Part shown: positions 2,769 to 23,909 of the stretch, in pieces
Numbering within the stretch: position 1 is the stretch's first letter
How the letters are laid out: each line of letters opens with the position of its first letter
Sequence record: CP053388.1
DNA length: 64,000 bases
Direction: 5' to 3' (one strand)
Origin: Escherichia phage CMS-2020a
The notes under the pieces: model-generated
Seen by the model: only the letters and a program-made list of their open reading frames with translations
What the model was told of the DNA's origin: nothing
Databases searched by the model: none
Program-made: the position numbers and the translations under genes

Positions 2769-3194
2769 TCAATCTTCTTGTTTAGGGAAAAACTGTTCAA
2801 TAACTCTGTCAACGGCTGTGTCTATATGGAGTAGATGCCACACAACCATATCTTTGCTTCCCATGCCTTGTGTGAATATCACGTCATACTTACGCCATGC
2901 GCAGTGGAACCAATATGCTGAGTCATCAATTGGTAAATCCTCTCCCGCCTCTTTGAAGTATTTCAGCAGCATTGCCTGCTCTGCCGTTGGCGTTGGACCT
3001 ATTTCCTGAGCGTACATACGGATGAATCGCTGCCAGTCTGTCTCGTCGGGGGTTGGATCTGGTGGGGTCATTTCTGCGATAGCGTTTCGTAGCTGATGCG
3101 CCCAATCAGGTTCAGGAAAGCCTTTTGCTACTTCATCATCAATAACATCCAGAGCCACGTTTGCGGCATCGTAGAGTTTCTTAATAACTGTCAT
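2769..3194 (-). CDS. hypothetical acidic protein (141 aa)
   Basis: ORF; AAACAAATTGTTT palindrome about 20 bp upstream of its start. Confidence 0.45.
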   Translation of the reverse strand: MTVIKKLYDAANVALDVIDDEVAKGFPEPDWAHQLRNAIAEMTPPDPTPDETDWQRFIRMYAQEIGPTPTAEQAMLLKYFKEAGEDLPIDDSAYWFHCAWRKYDVIFTQGMGSKDMVVWHLLHIDTAVDRVIEQFFPKQED

Positions 3195-3244
3195 GTTTTC
3201 TTATCCTTTTAAACAAATTGTTTTCTTAATAAGATAATTTCGAT

Positions 3245-3278
3245 AAAAAAGGCGTCCAACTGGACGCCTGAACTTTTT
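3245..3278 (-). terminator. intrinsic terminator GGCGTCC-AACT-GGACGCC flanked by A-run and T-run
   Basis: hairpin plus T-tract (on minus strand) directly after stop of 3286..4116. Confidence 0.6.
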
Positions 3279-3285
3279 AGGGGAG

Positions 3286-4116
3286 TTATTTCACTGTAAT
3301 GAAAGGAGTGTTAGCCCCTTGAGTCATGTACTGCGGTAACTGGCCATTCCATTTATTGATGGCTTCCAGCTCCATAACGTTCGGGTTTTGACGCAGAGCT
3401 TCACCGCGCAGACGAATGGCGTCTGCTTCTGCTTGCGCACGAGCACGGATAGCATCAGCTTCACCATTAGCCTGTTCACGTAGCATATTCGCCTCAGCTT
3501 TACGTTGTTCAACTTCCTGCTGACGTTGCAGAGTACGCTGGTTAGCCGTTACTTTGGCGTTGATAGATTCAATGACGGTTTTTGGGTAATCAGGCTTTCC
3601 AACCCATGACAGGCTCAGTACCTCAATACCAACCGGAGACATCTCTTTCTGAATATCTTTCAGTGCGTTGTCCAGCAATTGCGCCTTACCACCGTCGATA
3701 AATGAGTCAGTGGTCATACGGCTGGCCAAACGGTTTAGAGAGTCGGCAATTTTCTGACGCAGATCTGATTCGGTGATATCGTCTACGCCTTTGCGATAGG
3801 TCTGGAACACCGTCGTTACCTTGTCACGATTAACCAGATACGCAACGCCAATTTTGTGACCAATAGCAGTACCGTCACTCATCTGGAATGTGAACGGTTC
3901 GTCGTAGGTCTTCATTTGTTTGAAGGTCGGGAATACGTAAAGTTCGGTGTTAAGACCTGTCCATTGGCGACCAACGCCAACCACTTCACCGATCCCTTTG
4001 TCTTCACCTAATTTGTTTACTTTGATGCCAACGTATCCAGGCTCCACGCGATCACAGCCAGTAAGACCCATTGTGCAAATAGCCGCCAGAGCAACTGCAA
4101 GTAAACCTTTCTTCAT
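3286..4116 (-). CDS. SPFH/band-7 (stomatin/prohibitin-like) domain lipoprotein
   Basis: signal peptide with lipobox LTGC; C-terminal Ala/Glu/Arg-rich coiled-coil typical of SPFH proteins; domain call from recalled family features. Confidence 0.55.
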   Translation of the reverse strand: MKKGLLAVALAAICTMGLTGCDRVEPGYVGIKVNKLGEDKGIGEVVGVGRQWTGLNTELYVFPTFKQMKTYDEPFTFQMSDGTAIGHKIGVAYLVNRDKVTTVFQTYRKGVDDITESDLRQKIADSLNRLASRMTTDSFIDGGKAQLLDNALKDIQKEMSPVGIEVLSLSWVGKPDYPKTVIESINAKVTANQRTLQRQQEVEQRKAEANMLREQANGEADAIRARAQAEADAIRLRGEALRQNPNVMELEAINKWNGQLPQYMTQGANTPFITVK

Positions 4117-4119
4117 TAC

Positions 4120-4320
4120 TTATTTCCCCTTTGCTTTGATTAATGAGTTGATAAACTTACGACCAGCAATAAGACCGATTACAGGAGCACCAAAACCAAC
4201 GATAACTCCAAACATGACGGCTAAATCACTCTTGGTGGAAATCAGCGACGGAACCAGTAAACCGTAGATGAGAGCCACTGAAACGCCTGTGGCTACTGCC
4301 AATAGATAGATTTTGATCAT
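4120..4320 (-). CDS. small two-helix membrane protein (66 aa)
   Basis: two hydrophobic segments; 3 bp upstream of SPFH gene. Confidence 0.5.
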   Translation of the reverse strand: MIKIYLLAVATGVSVALIYGLLVPSLISTKSDLAVMFGVIVGFGAPVIGLIAGRKFINSLIKAKGK

Positions 4321-4383
4321 GTGTTTTCCTATGTGGTTGTTATGCGAAAATAATAAGTAAGTACTTATCTATTTTCAAGAGAT

Positions 4384-4407
4384 AAAAAAGGCGTCCTGTG
4401 GACGCCT
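4384..4407 (-). terminator. intrinsic terminator AGGCGTCC-TGT-GGACGCCT plus T-run
   Basis: hairpin and T-tract immediately after stop of RecA-like gene. Confidence 0.6.
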
Positions 4408-4412
4408 TGTGT

Positions 4413-5486
4413 TTACTCTTCTACTGACTCGGTGGGGTTGTCTTTTGCTCTTCGGTCGTCGATTGCCTGCAAAGCCGCAATGATTTCAGCCAGTGGCTTC
4501 TCCCGATACATCTCGACGATCTGCGATTTGGTGTATTTCTTGTCACCAATTTCAACTCGCCCGCTGGCGTTCTTTGGCAGGTATCCTTCTTCCAGCATGT
4601 ACTCGACGAGCGATTCGATAACGTCGAGGCCACGAGTAGGATCGAAGTAGAATTTCCAGGTGCATTTGCCATACGGTGGTGCAACTTTGTTTTTGATGCA
4701 TTCTGCGCCTACGTCCTGGCCGATCTTCTCTTTACCATCCTTCATCACCGATGCACCAAGACGGATACGTACAGAAGCGTAGAACTTCGGTGAATCTCCA
4801 CCTGGCGACGTAGTAGGGTCGCCAAACATTACACCGATTTTTGTGCGAACCTGATTCAAGAAGATGATGCAGGCGTTGTATTTGCGTGCCCACAAAGCCA
4901 GAGTAGGGAAGTTCGCACTTGTCGCACGAGCCAGTGCCGTATTGTCGTTCATGTTTAGCTGATCTTTGTCTTTGGCAGTGCCTTCAGCCATCTTTTCGAA
5001 CTTCTCGGCTTTGGAGTTCGGAACCATAGACGCAAGTGAGTCAGCCACGATACAGATAGGTGCTGATTCAGGAATAAGCTCTTCATCACGTACCAATTTA
5101 AGAATTGTGCCGATCAACTCTACAGAGTCTTCGAAGGTATCAGGCTGCTTGTATACCCACTGACCGTCATCCTCATCTGCGTTCAGGCCATTGGCTACAG
5201 CCAGGCCAACGTCAAAACTGTTTTCATGATCGAGGAATACCGCCAGACCATCTTGTTTTTGAGCGGAGATCATCGCTGCTGTTGCAAGGAACGTTTTCCC
5301 TGCACTTGGAGGACCGAATACTTCGACGATACGACCACATGGGAAGCCGCCATCGTAACGACCAGAAATAGCTTTGTTTAACGGTGGAAAGCCTGTATCA
5401 ATCCAATGAGTTACTTTCTGAATTTCGTCGTTGCTACCGATTTTCTTTTTCAGAGCAAGTGCCAGTGCGGATTTTCCTTTTGCCAT
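4413..5486 (-). CDS. RecA/UvsX-family recombinase ATPase
   Basis: Walker A GPPSAGKT, RecA-like core spacing. Confidence 0.7.
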   Translation of the reverse strand: MAKGKSALALALKKKIGSNDEIQKVTHWIDTGFPPLNKAISGRYDGGFPCGRIVEVFGPPSAGKTFLATAAMISAQKQDGLAVFLDHENSFDVGLAVANGLNADEDDGQWVYKQPDTFEDSVELIGTILKLVRDEELIPESAPICIVADSLASMVPNSKAEKFEKMAEGTAKDKDQLNMNDNTALARATSANFPTLALWARKYNACIIFLNQVRTKIGVMFGDPTTSPGGDSPKFYASVRIRLGASVMKDGKEKIGQDVGAECIKNKVAPPYGKCTWKFYFDPTRGLDVIESLVEYMLEEGYLPKNASGRVEIGDKKYTKSQIVEMYREKPLAEIIAALQAIDDRRAKDNPTESVEE

Positions 5487-5488
5487 GA

Positions 5489-5761
5489 TCAGGCTCCTTT
5501 TGTTTCGTTGATTCGTTTTAAAGCGGCGGATTCGTCGAATACAATCGCATCGTGGTTAAGGAGTCTGGATACACGAGCGAGGATTTTTACGACCTGCTCG
5601 CTGACTAATCCAAACTCGCGATCTGTCGCTTTCATTCCGGCAGCGCCTAGAATTGACGGCAGTGCGATGACAGCGTACTCACCGTGATAAAAGACAATCT
5701 CTTTTGCCAGTTGGGCAGGGGTGGTTGTAGCGCCATTAATAATCGATTTAAGCATTAGCAA
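5489..5761 (-). CDS. hypothetical protein (90 aa)
   Basis: ORF tightly packed between exonuclease and recombinase genes. Confidence 0.4.
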   Translation of the reverse strand: MLMLKSIINGATTTPAQLAKEIVFYHGEYAVIALPSILGAAGMKATDREFGLVSEQVVKILARVSRLLNHDAIVFDESAALKRINETKGA

Positions 5762-18933: not shown

Positions 18934-19179
18934 TTACAGAGTGCTCGCAAAAGCAGCAAATTCTGTGTATCCGCCAATCGGCTGGCCATCGATCAGCACC
19001 TGGGGGATCGTCTCTACCGGTTTACCAACAATTTCGCTAAGTTTTTCCTTCTCGATACCGGCAGTGGTGATGTCGATGTACTCATAATCACCGTAGCCAT
19101 GTCCCTTTAGTTGCTTCGCCAGCTCGACCGCACGTTTGCAGTATGAGCAGTTATCTCGTCCGTAGATAGTGATCGTCAT
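18934..19179 (-). CDS. glutaredoxin / NrdH-like redoxin
   Basis: CSYC active-site motif near N-terminus, 81 aa thioredoxin-fold length. Confidence 0.8.
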   Translation of the reverse strand: MTITIYGRDNCSYCKRAVELAKQLKGHGYGDYEYIDITTAGIEKEKLSEIVGKPVETIPQVLIDGQPIGGYTEFAAFASTL

Positions 19180-19352
19180 AACTTAACAGATGCCTTTATA
19201 AATATTGATTCGAACATATCAGACTATACTACAAACAGATTTTTTTGATAAGTATGTAGTAACTTATTGATTGACTAGTAAGCAATTGAAGTGATTACGA
19301 CAATAGATTAGAGTAAGGATTGCCTTGAAATGTACATTTTATAGAGGTTTTA

Positions 19353-20261
19353 ATGATTGGTAAGTTGTCTGATTCTTTGATTGAAAATAAATACAACGAA
19401 TTTAGAGAAGAAATATCTTTACTTTTTGACTATTTAAATCAGATAAATGATACAACAAAGAAAAATATAAAACGTCTTCTTAAAGAAGTGGAGTATGCAC
19501 AGAATCCAGATACTATTATTAATATTAATGAAACTATTAAGATTAAGTGTGGCACAACGTTAGCTCGCCATTTATGTTCAAACCCATATACAGGTTCAAC
19601 ATTAGAGATAGGTAACAGCGCCATTGATTTAGAAGAAAAGATAAGATTGTGTAATACTTTGAAAAATAAACAATATCAGTGGGTTATTACTGAAGCCTAT
19701 GAGTTACTGGAAGACTATATTGAGGCAATATATGTCTATACTGTATGTGTTCGAAATGATTTATGGTCCTCAAGTGATTTTGGTAAGGTTGAAGATGATG
19801 AAATTGGGAAAAGGGAAGTTTATTACAGATTATTAAAAGCAAAAAGTAACCCATCGAAAAAAATAACTAAAATTTTCAGAAATAAAATACCTGGTTTCAA
19901 AGAGATAGAAACAAACAACAAGATTGGCAAAAACTATCGCTTTAACATCAAGCTAATTGAACTACTAAGACATACAATAGTACACAATAGTGGACGATTC
20001 AATGATACAGAAAAATTTATAAATAAGGTTTTAGATGAATCTGAAATAAACGGTAAGAAAAGAGTTATTGGAGAAAGAGCTGTTAGAAGTTACATTACTA
20101 AAGTGCAAGAAGATGATATTGTGATGCTCTTAGAAAGACCATCTGAAATTTTAGGTTCTTTTGGTGGGTATTTTAACAGAGCAAAATTTTTACTAAGTGA
20201 TATTTTAGAATACTCACTAATCATTAAAGAAGAACTAAAATCATATCTAGGCAATCATTAA
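19353..20261 (+). CDS. AT-rich foreign gene; HEPN-motif protein, possible Abi-like abortive-infection/defence protein
   Basis: GC content visibly far below neighbours; own AT-rich upstream region and terminator; RHTIVH fits Rx4-6H HEPN motif. Confidence 0.5.
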   Translation: MIGKLSDSLIENKYNEFREEISLLFDYLNQINDTTKKNIKRLLKEVEYAQNPDTIININETIKIKCGTTLARHLCSNPYTGSTLEIGNSAIDLEEKIRLCNTLKNKQYQWVITEAYELLEDYIEAIYVYTVCVRNDLWSSSDFGKVEDDEIGKREVYYRLLKAKSNPSKKITKIFRNKIPGFKEIETNNKIGKNYRFNIKLIELLRHTIVHNSGRFNDTEKFINKVLDESEINGKKRVIGERAVRSYITKVQEDDIVMLLERPSEILGSFGGYFNRAKFLLSDILEYSLIIKEELKSYLGNH

Positions 20262-20265
20262 CAAA

Positions 20266-20287
20266 AAAGGGGCCGAAGCCCCTTTGA
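20266..20287 (+). terminator. intrinsic terminator AAAGGGGC-CGAA-GCCCCTTT plus T-run
   Basis: GC stem-loop and T tract 5 bp after stop of 19353..20261. Confidence 0.7.
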
Positions 20288-20439
20288 ATTTTGCGCTGAA
20301 AAAAGTGTTGCTAGGATGTTAGCAAGCTATGGTTAAGAACGTCTGCCGTAATTGTCTATCACAGCGTTGAGCGGTCTGGTTTATGTTAGCGGAGTCTTAA
20401 TCTGGTTGATTAAAAGGCCAAACCGCTCAACGCTGTGTC

Positions 20440-20526
20440 TGGCGGAGAGTAATGGAATCGAACCATCATCGCTTGCGCAATGGGACGGTTTTCAAGACCG
20501 CTTGAGCACCATGCTCCCTACTCTCC
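20440..20526 (-). tRNA. tRNA-Ser (anticodon TGA), type II with long variable arm
   Basis: hand-folded: acceptor GGAGAGT/ACTCTCC, anticodon loop CTTGAAA, T-loop TTCGATT, encoded CCA; D-arm somewhat atypical. Confidence 0.55.
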
Positions 20527-20750
20527 GGCCGTTGTGGTGGCCGGTACTGAATCTCCGGCATACGGTGCAGCCAATTAGGACTACGGACGATCACCGCTCG
20601 CGAAAGGGAAGATTTGCGGCCGCATTTCCCTAACACCCAAGAAAGCTATCGCATCAGTCTGCGAATCCACCACAACGGTAAGATCACTACCTTTCGACCA
20701 GTCATTGTGCACATGAACGACGATTAACCGTAATGATCTTATCGTTGTAT

Positions 20751-20826
20751 TGGTGCCGGTTAACGGACTCGAACCGCTGACATCCTGCTTACAAGGCAGG
20801 CGCTCTACCAACTGAGCTAAACCGGC
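20751..20826 (-). tRNA. tRNA-Thr (anticodon TGT)
   Basis: hand-folded cloverleaf: acceptor GCCGGTT/AACCGGC, D-stem GCTC/GAGC, anticodon loop CTTGTAA, T-loop TTCGAGT, CCA encoded. Confidence 0.8.
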
Positions 20827-20830
20827 AATT

Positions 20831-20917
20831 TGGTGGGGAGTGATGGAGTCGAACCACCCGAGTCGCCATGACAGTAGATTTACAGTCTACACCGCTACCT
20901 CTACGGACTAACTCCCC
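20831..20917 (-). tRNA. tRNA-Tyr (anticodon GTA), type II
   Basis: acceptor GGGGAGT/ACTCCCC, anticodon stem-loop GTAGA-CTGTAAA-TCTAC, long variable arm, T-loop TTCGACT, CCA encoded. Confidence 0.7.
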
Positions 20918-20922
20918 TAAAT

Positions 20923-20997
20923 TGGCGATGGTGGGTGGATTCGAACCACCGACCAGTTGGTTAACAGCCAACTGCTCTACCGCTGAGCTACACCATC
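20923..20997 (-). tRNA. tRNA-Asn (anticodon GTT)
   Basis: clean cloverleaf: acceptor GATGGTG/CACCATC, D-stem GCTC/GAGC, anticodon loop CTGTTAA, T-arm GGTGG-TTCGAAT-CCACC, CCA encoded. Confidence 0.85.
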
Positions 20998-21775
20998 AAT
21001 TCGGCACTGCCAGTATTTATTACTCAACAGTGCCAATCGCGACGGTTTAGTTTCTGCCAGGAAACGCACCGCTACTTGCACTTTTCGTTAGTGCCAGACG
21101 CTTTCGACTTCGCTCAATAGTAGAAGGCAAAATCTTTAAGTAGATGATGTTTCTGAGGACAGCACCTACTTTGTTATTTATACAATGTAATGTATGGAAT
21201 CATTTGTTGTGAAAACAGGCACCAATGGCAACAGTGGTTAAACCTACACAACAATCCTGTCTTCACAACGTTGAGGCCACTACTCCGATTGAATGTTTGC
21301 CCAACATGTTACATATCAACGCTCGCCGGTATCTCTGTGAATAGAACCTTAGAATTGATAAAAATGTAATGGCCTCAACGTTGTGTGCTGGCTAACCATA
21401 CCAGCCGGGCTACGTCGCCGCTTTTTAACCCAGTATAAACGACATAATTGAACAAAATGACGTAACAGGATGGGCGGTCAGTGGCTAAGAATCCGGGAGT
21501 CATATGGAGTTGAAAATATACCGACCGCCCATTCTGTTACTTCATCGGAGGGAACACTCATGTTCCCTCCTGCGTTCTGCAATCACACTCGCTCAGTGTG
21601 TCCCATTTCGGTAACGAGGCTGGAAACTGACCTCGCTGGTGTTTGGCTTATTAGGCTACTGCCAGATAGACTTCTTCGTTTGCACTTGTATTTAAGTTCA
21701 AACAGTCGCGTCTCAACGAAAACAAAGTCATCTTATACATAAAAGATAAGTAAGTAAATACTTATCTTTGTGTTT

Positions 21776-22066
21776 TTATTCGGTTGTGGCTTTTTTGATC
21801 AAGGCCACTCTACGACTAGGTGTTCTTGTGATGGTGGCAGTGAACCGTTTCGCTTGGATAGTAATGGTTTCGTTCTCCTTAAGTTGCCCGTAGCGAGTTT
21901 CCACCAGGGTGCCAAGACGCCACAGACCATCATCGATACGTTTATGACTGGCAAATTTAATCAGCAGCAGTTTTACGACTAACTGACCTACGTAAAAGGC
22001 GAATGCGACTCCGGCCGCTAAGAAATAGGTGGCCAACCACCATTCCCAAGAAGTTAAATTGCTCAT
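21776..22066 (-). CDS. membrane protein (96 aa)
   Basis: N-terminal transmembrane segment; start overlaps stop of upstream small ORF. Confidence 0.45.
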   Translation of the reverse strand: MSNLTSWEWWLATYFLAAGVAFAFYVGQLVVKLLLIKFASHKRIDDGLWRLGTLVETRYGQLKENETITIQAKRFTATITRTPSRRVALIKKATTE

Positions 22067-22215
22067 TTTATAACCTTTGTTTCATGAACTACCCGATACA
22101 CGCGCTTTCCGATGCACAGTGTTTTGCTTTTAAGTTCCTGCTTAATTAAATCACGACAGATGCCGAAGCCGATAAGGAAGCCACCCATAAAAGCTAATGA
22201 GATGTATGGAATCAT
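22063..22215 (-). CDS. small membrane protein (50 aa), not in supplied ORF track
   Basis: hand-translated MIPYISLAFMGGFLIGFGICRDLIK...; ATGA overlaps with both neighbours. Confidence 0.3.
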   Translation of the reverse strand: MIPYISLAFMGGFLIGFGICRDLIKQELKSKTLCIGKRVYRVVHETKVIK

Positions 22216-22427
22216 TTTAACACTCCTGATTCTACTAATTGCTGTAGCAATACTTTCCCTTTATCAGTTAACTGGTAGTTGGCCGAGCACCACGTTTCAG
22301 AAACGTTTGCAACCAACCCTAACCGCTCTAACTTAGCTCGCGTTTTAGGCTTCCAGTACTCAGGGAACTCCGGCCACTTACTGATTTCATGAAGCGTTTC
22401 CTTCTCCCGCTTACTTAATACGATCAT
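22212..22427 (-). CDS. hypothetical protein (71 aa)
   Basis: ORF translationally coupled in chain of small genes. Confidence 0.4.
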   Translation of the reverse strand: MIVLSKREKETLHEISKWPEFPEYWKPKTRAKLERLGLVANVSETWCSANYQLTDKGKVLLQQLVESGVLK

Positions 22428-22590
22428 CCTTAATCTCCTTCACGGTGTTGGTTATTTCTACAATGCGATAAATACGACCGCGTCTTTCTATAACACCGCT
22501 TTTAATGTAGTCATTGATGCAACTGGACATCACCACAATACCTATGAAAAAACCAACTGCTAAAAATGCAATCATCCAGCCGAGCATCAT
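22411..22590 (-). CDS. small membrane protein (59 aa), not in supplied ORF track
   Basis: hand-translated MMLGWMIAFLAVGFFIGIVVM...; start ATG overlaps ligase stop (ATGA). Confidence 0.3.
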   Translation of the reverse strand: MMLGWMIAFLAVGFFIGIVVMSSCINDYIKSGVIERRGRIYRIVEITNTVKEIKDDRIK

Positions 22591-23909
22591 TCTTTATCTC
22601 CGATTCGATCTTCTGTATCGCGTAAGCAACGCGGCCATTTCAGTCGTGGGTGGCGTAAGCTGCCGTCCGGTGTTTTCTCGTGACAATGAACCTCGACAAT
22701 ACGACCACGGTACTTCTCTTTGTTGTTCCAGATCTCATCCAGATATTTATGCTTAATGCCGCTCGCACGAACGATGACGCCGTTTTCAAGACGAATAACA
22801 ATTTTTCCAAGCGTGTTGGCAAAACCAGAGTCCGGATCGCCCGGCTCAAAATCGATAATTTCACCATCTTCTGAATCTTCGTCTTTTAACTTCCACCAGC
22901 TGCGGGTACGTTTAAACTCGTAAACAGAGTTCGGATCTTTGCCCATCTCCCCTTCTTCGTTATCGTCCAGGCGTTTCATGAAGCGTTCGATGAAGTCTTC
23001 GTGGCTATGGATGATATAGAACGGATGCAGGTGAATGTCTTGTGTGTAGCCTTCACTGCGATCGTTTTTGAACAACGCCACCAGCATAGCCAGGCGCTCT
23101 TTCAGCTTCATACCTGTCTTTGCATACTCTTTGGATTTAGCCTGTGCTCGCCATTCCGGTAGGAAGAAGTCGAAAACATGATAAATAGCGCCAATTGCCT
23201 GCACGTTCTTTTTGCGCAATGCAGATACGGACTGGTTAAATGAACCGGCAGTTCCTTCACCATCGAAGAAGATGTGTTTGTGGCCTGAAAGTTTGCCTAA
23301 TTCGAGCATGGCTGGCTTTAGGTGATCGAGAGACGTGATTGGATTACCAGTACGAGAAAGGAAGTTAACCTCTTCCTCGTCAACAATAACCTCGCAAATT
23401 ACTCGCAAACCATCGAGCTTAAGACTGCCAATCATCGGCCATTTTGCTTTAGGATTTGGCTTGAAGGGGTATTTGTCGCCCTTTTCTTTATACGGTGACG
23501 CCAGCTGCACCTCGAATTTCGGAATGGAATTTTCAAAAACCTTGTTGCATAGGCTAATCCCAACGCCAGCTTTCGGGTCTTTTAAGAGGAAACGACGGAA
23601 CACGTCCTGCCCATCGGCGCACATTGACGCCACGATAGACTCAACAGCTGCTATTGCTGCGTTCCCCGTTAGCTCGCGAGAGGCCAGCTTATTCAGTACA
23701 TCAATGGCTTTTTCGTCACTTGGGATGGACTCACTAAGCGGCTCTGCCACTTTGTATTTCTTTACCCCAAAACGGATGAAAGGGTTGAGCATCAATGAAA
23801 CCATGCTTTGTTCAAAGTCATCCATGTTGGCCAATGCCTCTTTTTTTGCATTGGTTCCCATAGCTTTCATTTCGTCCAGCTTATGCTTAAGTGCGATCAA
23901 CTTTTTCAT
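22587..23909 (-). CDS. ATP-dependent DNA ligase
   Basis: adenylation motif I KLDGLR (KxDG) and motif FDGE. Confidence 0.8.
   Translation of the reverse strand: MKKLIALKHKLDEMKAMGTNAKKEALANMDDFEQSMVSLMLNPFIRFGVKKYKVAEPLSESIPSDEKAIDVLNKLASRELTGNAAIAAVESIVASMCADGQDVFRRFLLKDPKAGVGISLCNKVFENSIPKFEVQLASPYKEKGDKYPFKPNPKAKWPMIGSLKLDGLRVICEVIVDEEEVNFLSRTGNPITSLDHLKPAMLELGKLSGHKHIFFDGEGTAGSFNQSVSALRKKNVQAIGAIYHVFDFFLPEWRAQAKSKEYAKTGMKLKERLAMLVALFKNDRSEGYTQDIHLHPFYIIHSHEDFIERFMKRLDDNEEGEMGKDPNSVYEFKRTRSWWKLKDEDSEDGEIIDFEPGDPDSGFANTLGKIVIRLENGVIVRASGIKHKYLDEIWNNKEKYRGRIVEVHCHEKTPDGSLRHPRLKWPRCLRDTEDRIGDKE

Follow-up and report, generated by a model that had tools for sequence, protein, structure and literature searches.

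A candidate mimic of the tmRNA template, with an arm complementary to host tmRNA, in the non-coding RNA operon of an SSU5-like phage-plasmid

Within a 64,000-nucleotide (nt) stretch of Escherichia phage CMS-2020a (CP053388.1), hereafter the window, we analyzed the hairpin-rich segment at positions 20360–21770, which borders a tRNA cluster. The window belongs to an SSU5-like phage-plasmid, with Escherichia phage Cyrano and many E. coli plasmids of ~110 kb as nearest relatives. With moderate confidence, we read this segment as the non-coding body of a minus-strand RNA operon whose module X (21726→21571, minus strand, ~150 nt) would be a mimic of the template of transfer-messenger RNA (tmRNA), carrying an arm complementary to host tmRNA and interfering with or re-templating trans-translation. 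X combines a 5' anti-tmRNA arm, a tmRNA-like resume context, a ten-codon tag, a helix-5-like hairpin and two pseudoknots, and belongs to a phage RNA family that is widespread and unannotated. On sequence grounds, it most likely acts on host trans-translation. The sequence-only reading of this DNA, which had flagged the inverted repeats of the segment, did not contain this tmRNA-like module (21571–21726), its most informative feature.

A sigma-70-like candidate promoter precedes X on the minus strand (21730–21758; -35 TTTACT at 21758–21753, a 17-nt spacer and -10 TAAGAT at 21735–21730). It was read from the sequence and not called in the promoter scan of the window, and it places the predicted start of X ~4–8 nt before GUUUUCG. 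The -10-like hexamer is conserved among SSU5-like relatives (TAAGAT/TATGAT/TATAGT), and in other lineages many copies of X have near-consensus promoters at the same position, which would set the arm at the extreme 5' end, for example TTGACA-17-TAAGAT in phage Sf13 and TTGACA-17-TAGATT in ZC2 and two further loci (L011, L142). The arm itself, UUUGUUUUCGUUGAGACGCGACUGUUUGAAC (21696–21726, minus), contains the blocks GUUUUCGU and GCGACUGUUU complementary to E. coli tmRNA. It is followed by the A-rich resume context UUAAAUACAAGU and the tag frame (together 21648–21695, minus; frame at 21683→21648). This frame reads GCA AAC GAA GAA GUC UAU CUG GCA GUA GCC UAA UAA, that is, ten codons (ANEEVYLAVA) and two stops; E. 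coli tmRNA, for comparison, reads GCA AAC GAC GAA AAC UAC GCU UUA GCA GCU UAA UAA (ANDENYALAA and two stops). The stops of X are located in the loop of a helix-5-like hairpin, CUGG...CCAG (21636–21665, minus), which covaries with the tag codons: homologs carry CUGG/CCAG, CUGAU/AUCAG or AAAGC/GCUUU. Further 3', covariation identifies two H-type pseudoknots (21571–21635, minus). In the first, PK-A, the stem CGAGG/CCUCG is 99.5% paired among homologs, with 6 variants, and the loop UUCCA pairs with UGGGA. In the second, PK-B, the stem CACAC/GUGUG is 100% paired with 7 variants, and the loop-to-3' pairing is weak in the SSU5-like lineage. Across homologs these loop-to-3' pairings covary as GGCCC:GGGC, GCCCAC:GUGGGC, GGCCCUGA:UCAGGGC and GACCCUGA:UCAGGGU. 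X shares with the mRNA-like domain of tmRNA (SsrA) an A-rich context before the resume codon GCA, a short AN(D/E) tag frame of ten codons with an Ala/Val-rich end and one or two stops, a stop codon within a helix-5-like hairpin, and a series of H-type pseudoknots following the tag.

The tag varies as a reading frame would. Among the matches listed, ~20 tag variants were found, all of them ten codons long and ending in one or two stops; a scan that placed no constraint on the tag yielded tags such as ANDDVVLMAA, ANDDLMLMAA, ANEERFLMAA, ANDDLMLAAA, ANDTEFKAAA, ANDNEFKVAA and AN..LAVA. Synonymous differences amount to 35% in the tag frame, compared with 5.5% and 16% in the other two frames. The program ARAGORN reads the homologous frame of the Sf13 type (locus L094) as a tmRNA tag with the resume consensus. 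A small protein encoded in X was considered and ruled out: there is no conserved start, and the overlapping +1 frame begins with ATG, GTG or CTG and shows the 5.5% of synonymous changes. In the E. coli tag, the part AAN(D/E)..(Y/F) is the recognition site of SspB. Since the tags of X keep this part and end in ..AA or ..VA, they resemble working degrons rather than inert tags, which makes a simple avoidance of degradation an unlikely purpose.

Next to the tag, the arm carries the second line of evidence. Block GUUUUCGU is the reverse complement of nt 97–104, or with a further C of nt 96–104, of E. coli tmRNA. Block GCGACUGUUU pairs with nt ~82–91, which hold the resume codon and the codons that open the tag; GCGACU faces nt 86–91, including the resume codon. 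Most lineages add UUUGCGG(C)UUUUU, which pairs with nt 69–81, the 3' strand of tmRNA pseudoknot 1 (PK1), and the arm segments between the blocks are free in length and sequence. Pairing of the window arm with tmRNA reaches -26.3 kcal/mol, a value attained by 6 of 5562 background 46-mers. For the arms of nearly all lineages tested, nt 61–106 is the top site on tmRNA; it ranks second for one locus (L015). The arm energies range from -23 to -38 kcal/mol and are equalled by 0–19 of ~2800–5600 background windows, the weakest cases being L015 (15) and Sf13 (19). When full-length lambdoid X is cofolded with tmRNA, the gain is -15 to -18, compared with -2 to -7 for shuffled arms. By computation, X is predicted to have both its own promoter and a conserved seed complementary to a defined target, as expected of a base-pairing small RNA (sRNA). 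We also considered the tag region of X itself as a partner of the arm, but ruled it out as the preferred one, as this pairing is about half as strong as that with host tmRNA.

The distribution of X supports its standing as an RNA family. A BLAST search with the leader gave matches of 74–77% identity in unannotated DNA of HK620, between pR'/qut and tQ, of Klebsiella phage Carvaje, beside a tRNA-Ser, and of the Moogle-like Sf13, between tRNA-Ile and tRNA-Arg; all three copies are co-oriented with the local tRNAs or transcript. Two pattern scans of IMG/VR, the first with a fixed tag end and the other with fixed arm blocks, retrieved at least 120 loci each. Among 126 of the loci listed, 77 have a tRNA within 1 kb, and the nearest tRNA always lies on the strand of X. 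Altogether, X occurs in SSU5-like, P7/P1, lambdoid/P22-like and FelixO1-like phages, Ackermannviridae (Vi01, phiEa2809), N4-like PBM-2 and Klebsiella siphoviruses, as well as in ZC2. An arm-free pattern scan of genome contigs produced 22 matches, all attributable to chance and lacking the arm or the ten-codon frame. No RNA feature is annotated under X in the homolog records, a few of which list a hypothetical coding sequence (CDS), or in RefSeq E. coli plasmids. The covariance-model search suggested in the sequence-only reading turned up no known RNA besides the tRNAs in 19000–23000 (Rfam, E ≤ 10), and at gathering score 11 related loci gave tRNAs and one SIB RNA, with no match to X. In the literature searched, neither X nor its tags nor any phage RNA antisense to tmRNA is described, and no evidence of expression of X was found; two sRNAs of Y. 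pestis pMT1 map elsewhere on that plasmid than X (PMC3770706).

Several of these loci show features of their own. In P7/P1 (L127, minus strand, ~2680–2500), X has the tag ANDDLMMAAA and is located, unannotated, in the leader of the ban operon, between the C1-controlled operator Op(ban) with a terminator-like hairpin and a tRNA-Asn. In N4-like PBM-2 (L213), ARAGORN does not call the annotated 'tRNA-Cys' that directly follows X on its 3' side (871–950), whose acceptor stem, on visual inspection, contains a U3.G70 wobble and a U7.C66 mismatch, giving it the appearance of an odd tRNA-like RNA fused to X. The SIB RNA mentioned above, a type I antitoxin (RF00113, 98.6 bits), lies at 1709–1862 of locus L012, ~290 nt 3' of X and on the same strand.

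In the mechanism we propose, X would anneal to host tmRNA via its arm, and the annealed X would interfere with, or re-template, trans-translation during phage development; judging from the architecture, it would either block tmRNA or replace its tag template. Where a tRNA directly follows X, as in some other phages, RNase P would generate the 3' end. A more specific version, which we put forward tentatively and consider rather doubtful, is that X serves as a trans-acting 'surrogate template', so that the alanyl-tRNA-like domain of the host and the phage RNA form a bimolecular tmRNA. Here the arm would cover the host RNA from the end of PK1 through the resume codon to the codons just after it, and the resume codon and tag of X would emerge at the place of those of the host. 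If true, such a template could rewrite the tag on stalled chains or bring back rescue after damage to the host template, and this would make it the first example of trans-translation being re-templated by a virus.

The nearest precedent for X is found in mycobacteriophage DS6A, whose tmRNA consists of the tRNA-like domain only, lacks a CDS and inhibits host tmRNA (PMC11915505). Together with two-piece tmRNAs, DS6A shows that tmRNA functions can be divided among RNAs and that a phage-borne half can interfere with that of the host (PMC11915505). However, X represents the opposite half, the template, is not matched by a cognate acceptor piece and has an arm antisense to the RNA of the host. A second comparison can be drawn with anti-sRNAs. 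AgvB and AsxR were reportedly described by Tree and colleagues in 2014 as RNA sponges from prophages of enterohaemorrhagic E. coli (EHEC). Like X, these are small phage RNAs, expressed from an own promoter or within late transcripts, that pair with a conserved host non-coding RNA; they differ in targeting Hfq-dependent sRNAs instead of tmRNA and in showing no mimicry of a coding function of the target.

A number of observations weigh against our reading of X. To our knowledge, there is no route by which the tag frame of an RNA without a tRNA-like domain could be decoded, and the conservation of the tag frame coincides with helix 5. The SSU5-type arm is the weakest, pairing by two blocks only (8 + 10 bp), and the full-length cofolding gain in the window is modest (-8.6 kcal/mol compared with -4.2 ± 2.6 for shuffled arms); the strong pairing figures come from arms of the lambdoid, P1, N4-like and Vi01 types. 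In addition, all sampled hosts share one tmRNA target. As the scans fixed parts of X, the invariance of those parts is partly due to ascertainment, and as the sequences are phylogenetically related, the counts are inflated. For the window copy of X, promoter and 3' end are both predictions from sequence. An sRNA would be expected to end in an intrinsic terminator, but no U-run follows X or the neighboring hairpin I19 in the window, so the 3' end would need processing. Finally, the absence of one of the long hairpins in a relative, described below, indicates that some hairpins may be neutral insertions.

We then turned to the inverted repeats themselves. The four repeats flagged earlier are present, most of them longer than described, and the two long ones called related do share the motif CACAACGTTGAG, which (with ≤1 mismatch) is confined to these arms within the window; however, a third member of this family, at 20667–20690/20730–20753, had been overlooked, as had a perfect 12-bp repeat (20529–20540/20667–20678). 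Folded as minus-strand RNA, the hairpins were compared with 200 dinucleotide shuffles each and are far more stable; the whole 778-nt leader gave z = -8.6. H-a (CACAGCGUUGAGCGGUUUGG/CCAGACCGCUCAACGCUGUG, 20360–20379/20418–20437, minus) is a 20-bp stem, 95% complementary, with z = -9.9 and conserved in Cyrano and plasmid pJN2-26; its position directly 3' of tRNA-Ser is as the sequence-only reading had it. H-b, or I2 (CCAAUACAACGAUAAGAUCAUUAC/GUAGUGAUCUUACCGUUGUGGUGG, 20667–20690/20730–20753, minus), lies in the Ser-Thr spacer, has 24-nt arms that are 83% complementary (z = -4.6) and has an equivalent in P7. H-c (CACAACGUUGAGGCCAUUAC/GUAGUGGCCUCAACGUUGUG, 21264–21283/21366–21385, minus), again a 20-bp stem at 95% (z = -6.8), encloses a poorly conserved 82-nt loop and marks a module boundary. 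Between X and H-c follow the fully complementary 10-nt hairpin I19 (GGAGGGAACA-UGAG-UGUUCCCUCC, 21547–21556/21561–21570, minus; z = -5.2), the long hairpin I1 (21457–21482/21520–21545, minus; arms of 25–26 nt, 88%, z = -6.9), which includes ATGGGCGGTC/GACCGCCCAT and has a variable loop, and the conserved hairpin GGCUGG-UAUGGUUA-GCCAGC (21387–21406, minus).

The stems of I19 (helices 1–2), I1 (helix 3), the 21387–21406 hairpin (helix 4) and H-c (helix 5 of this series) were followed in an alignment of 24 SSU5-like relatives of 55–98% identity. As the idea of a structured RNA would predict, the repeats are conserved and the stems are kept by compensatory changes: pairing amounts to 94.6%, compared with 31–49% with slid partners, and 22 pairs are changed on both sides, compared with 1–6 in the slid controls; none of 500 shuffles matched the observed values. 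Changes on both sides affect 5 of the 7 pairs of helix 1, 7 pairs of I1 (98.8% paired) and 8 pairs of H-c, and the 21387–21406 hairpin is 100% paired. G.U cells (120) outnumber A.C cells (27), and pairing is better on the tRNA-sense strand (94.6%) than on the opposite one (88.0%), which argues for a transcript and not a cruciform. The flagged inverted repeats are thus RNA hairpins under selection on the tRNA-sense strand. The earlier impression that the segment holds no convincing open reading frames (ORFs) was also borne out, since only ORFs of 30–90 amino acids exist and relatives show indels throughout the region whose lengths are not divisible by three.

A common frame, 5'-CACAAC-arm...arm'-GUUGUG-3', underlies H-a, H-b and H-c and recurs in P1/P7 and lambdoid phages. 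In SSU5-like, P1-like and lambdoid phages, repeats of this type delimit RNA modules that are interchangeable, and gains and losses of modules occur at them. P7, for example, carries the same hairpins around the same tRNA-Ser and the same tRNA-shaped module, Y, with 95% identity to 20417–20688 of the window. Lambdoid late leaders are chains of CACAAC-AGGUAAGAGCAUU...AGUGCUCUUUCC-GUUGUG hairpins that alternate with cargo closed by GUUGUGGUG...CACCACAAC; this cargo comprises X, tRNAs, tRNA-like pieces, Y and one SIB RNA. In eight such leaders (L004, L010, L022, L039, L113, L131, L133, L136), located after tR' and extending up to the lysis genes, stem-enclosed modules are bounded by GGTAAGRGCATT/AGTGCTCTTTCC, and their shuffled contents include tRNA-like pieces with a T-arm and a recurrent GGGTAACAACGGGCAT...CACGAAACG module.

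This mosaicism allows another explanation, which we regard as unlikely overall: H-a, H-b and H-c could be selfish or neutral insertions similar to miniature inverted-repeat transposable elements (MITEs) or repetitive extragenic palindromic (REP) sequences, or recombination scars at sites of the type CAACGTTG, and have no RNA function. In one relative (L093), H-c is missing exactly between two copies of CAACGTTG; in Cyrano, which lacks H-b, Y and tRNA-Tyr, the hybrid junction CACCAACACAAT is similar to both boundaries. Within the arms, the outermost 12 nt are invariant in sequence and the inner parts vary, and modules shuffled in P7 and lambdoids are bounded by this frame as well. Against this stand the compensatory changes that keep the stems and the tolerance of G.U on the transcribed strand only. 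Moreover, copies of these hairpins occur in RNA operons only, oriented the same way with respect to the cargo, and no transposase or mobility function is linked to them.

A further possibility, less probable still in our view, is that the whole stretch is a cis-acting leader or spacer of the tRNA operon, made of signals for stability and for processing by RNases III, P and E, within which X has no function of its own. All elements are contiguous and co-oriented with the tRNAs, the stems of ≥20 bp have the length of known RNase III substrates, and X directly adjoins the 5' end of a tRNA in some phages. However, HK620, Vi01, phiEa2809, ZC2 and many lambdoid loci carry X without a nearby tRNA, X frequently has its own near-consensus promoter, and it is conserved across phage families with differing tRNAs and spacers. 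Neither the codon-like variation of the tag nor the complementarity to a target would be needed by a leader. For the long stems, as distinct from X, a role in processing the tRNA operon, as had been suggested, is plausible: near-perfect duplexes of ~20 bp or more, as in RNase III stems, are formed by H-a, H-c (20 bp each) and I1 (25 bp), next to H-b with its 24 nt at 83%, and these 20-bp duplexes may serve as processing or insulating stems in RNA and as recombination boundaries in DNA. Known RNase III stems in rRNA operons and T7 early RNA, as well as the 'boundary sequences' of lambdoid mosaics, are similar in that long duplexes flank mature RNAs and short conserved sequences mark the junctions of module swapping. 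The present array differs in that its CACAAC/GUUGUG hexamers are able to close the spacer hairpin or, alternatively, the cargo, so that neighboring folds compete (H-c with the 21206–21269 stem, H-b with the closing stem of Y). Structured RNAs other than tRNAs are known from phage tRNA clusters, such as the stable RNAs C and D of T4, and the c4 RNA of P1 is processed by RNase P; compared by description, these share a transcript with phage tRNAs and owe their maturation to the enzymes that process tRNAs, and such functions as are known for them differ from that proposed for X.

We see only a slight chance that X is a true two-piece or permuted tmRNA with its tRNA-like piece elsewhere or in a neighboring tRNA-like module. 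Such a reading would fit the tag with its resume context as well as helix 5 and the pseudoknots, and T-arm-bearing tRNA-like modules stand beside X in five lambdoid loci (L022, L113, L010, L131, L133). However, X lacks a tRNA-like domain, with no acceptor stem with G3.U70, T-arm or CCA; it would thus have no way to be charged and does not qualify as a tmRNA, although it matches the template half. SmpB binding, alanylation and use at stalled ribosomes further define a tmRNA, and X is a predicted template only. Its 5' end is an antisense arm directed against tmRNA, where tmRNA has an acceptor strand and the P2/PK1 region; X measures ~150 nt, compared with 363 nt, and has no Rfam tmRNA match. T-loop motifs in the window are restricted to the four ordinary tRNAs, and the window contains no adjoining paired acceptor piece of the kind seen in two-piece tmRNAs. 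TRNA or tRNA-like neighbors of X vary among phages or are absent, with no consistent partner and none in Cyrano, SSU5, HK620, Vi01 and ZC2. ARAGORN found no tmRNA in the window and ~140 loci except for one 'permuted' call (L094). In such FelixO1/Moogle-like tRNA arrays (L094, 91–839; L005), the program assembles a 749-nt 'permuted tmRNA' from the tag of X and distant acceptor pieces; in L094 these pieces (55–95 and 306–335) lie within the tRNA array, hundreds of nt upstream of the tag, and resemble parts of ordinary tRNAs. Calls of this type are a likely source of mis-annotated phage tmRNAs. A split tmRNA made of X and Y was also rejected, as Y has neither a T-loop nor G3.U70 and is absent from X-bearing Cyrano, SSU5, pJN2-26 and Felix-like phages.

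Finally, a lytic replication origin, as proposed earlier, or another DNA-level site (cruciform, protein operators) is highly improbable: the repeats are dense and the arm core CACAACGTTGAG is nearly palindromic and could bind a dimeric protein, but the region has no iterons, tandem repeats, DnaA boxes or AT-rich unwinding segment (GC 0.42–0.52), there is no adjacent replication gene, and one strand pairs better than the other, unlike in a cruciform.

The remaining elements can be placed along the operon. The tRNAs for Ser, Thr, Tyr and Asn are all encoded on the minus strand, likewise the genes at 21776–23909, so that 21000–21775 lies upstream (5') of the tRNAs and not downstream, as the sequence-only reading had assumed. 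The operon would run from the promoter through module X, the conserved hairpin modules, tRNA-Asn/Tyr/Thr, H-b, module Y, tRNA-Ser and H-a to the terminator. ARAGORN and Rfam agree on tRNA-Asn(GUU), tRNA-Tyr(GUA) and tRNA-Thr(UGU) (20751–20997, minus) and on tRNA-Ser(UGA) (20440–20526, minus). The latter is an unusual long-arm tRNA: its Rfam tRNA-Sec score (20440–20527) is 46.6, just below the threshold of 47 bits, and the record of phage D6 notes for its tRNA-Ser that the amino acid was 'not called by tRNAscan-SE'. A strong intrinsic terminator, AAAGGGGCUUCGGCCCCUUUUUUG (20262–20285, minus), bidirectional with the converging ORF 19353–20261, is the probable end of the operon. Termination by the flagged hairpins, by comparison, finds no support, since none is followed by a U-run and this is the sole good terminator; the scan gave a single weak call within 20360–21770, at 20649–20664 inside Y.

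Upstream, hairpin I14 (AAAGAUAAGUA-loop-UACUUAUCUUU, 21742–21769, minus) follows the gene at 21776–22066, weakly resembles a terminator and overlaps the -35 hexamer of the candidate promoter of X. The conserved block GACGUAGC (21409–21416, minus), 5' of the 21387–21406 hairpin, is an alternative partner for the 3' arm of I1: this arm, GUUACGUC (21457–21465), has two possible partners, the 5' arm of I1 and the conserved GACGUA(A/G)C at 21409–21416, and may form a structural switch. The stem I8 (GUUGUGAAGACAGG/CCUGUUUUCACAAC, 21206–21269, minus) is 89.6% paired with 9 pairs changed on both sides, and it overlaps the 3' arm of H-c in GUUGUG, which makes the two mutually exclusive across 6 nt. Next to it lies a conserved 14-mer, AUGAUUCCAUACAU / ATGATTCCATACAT (21190–21203, minus), which is kept by most SSU5-like relatives and in part, in one of two alignments, by L015 and L044 (55% identity). 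It overlaps the only promoter-like call of the scan, TTCACA-18-TACATT, which in most relatives has the poor -10 TACATC.

Module Y (I9; 20529–20678, minus) has the shape of a tRNA; CCGUUGUGGUGG/CCACCACAACGG closes it around a variable center and two hairpins with complementary loops. It shares 95% identity with P7/D6 and gave no match in Rfam. The family is also present at ~1615–1765 of L127 and at many lambdoid loci, with the closing stem GUUGUGGUG/CACCACAAC. The pairing between the loops of its hairpins 1 and 3 covaries (GACUGA:UCAGU in the window, GGCUGAU:AUCAGC in lambdoids), the central insert measures 20–150 nt, and some variants have true T-arms. The block of tRNA-Ser, Y and tRNA-Thr (20417–20856) is 87–96% identical to the P1-family phages P7/D6 (L127, L128) in an otherwise SSU5-like window, which points to an exchange of RNA modules between both phage-plasmid families; tRNA-Tyr is common to the window and the P1-like phage Ro157c2YLVW (L129). 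Beyond the terminator, the plus-strand ORF 19353–20261 (302 amino acids) has a GC content of ~0.30 in surroundings of ~0.45 and converges on the operon. A gene of similar size occupies its position in Klebsiella pJN2-26 and is missing in Cyrano; neither this ORF nor its neighbors had a Pfam or PADLOC match.

The tmRNA-SmpB system is the main bacterial pathway of ribosome rescue, and lambda-immP22 hybrids and Mu depend on it. If X is real, many well-studied enterobacterial phages, including P1/P7, HK620 and other lambdoids, Vi01-like, FelixO1-like and N4-like phages and phage-plasmids of the SSU5/pHCM2/pMT1 type, carry an unnoticed RNA aimed at this system. P1 and HK620 are standard laboratory phages, and mass spectrometry could be used to look for the predicted tags (...YLAVA, ...LMAA). 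As a template without the tRNA-like domain, X would be the counterpart of the known phage tmRNA that consists of this domain only, and it would partly explain the 'empty' spacers of phage tRNA arrays and lambdoid late leaders as arrays of interchangeable structured RNA modules.

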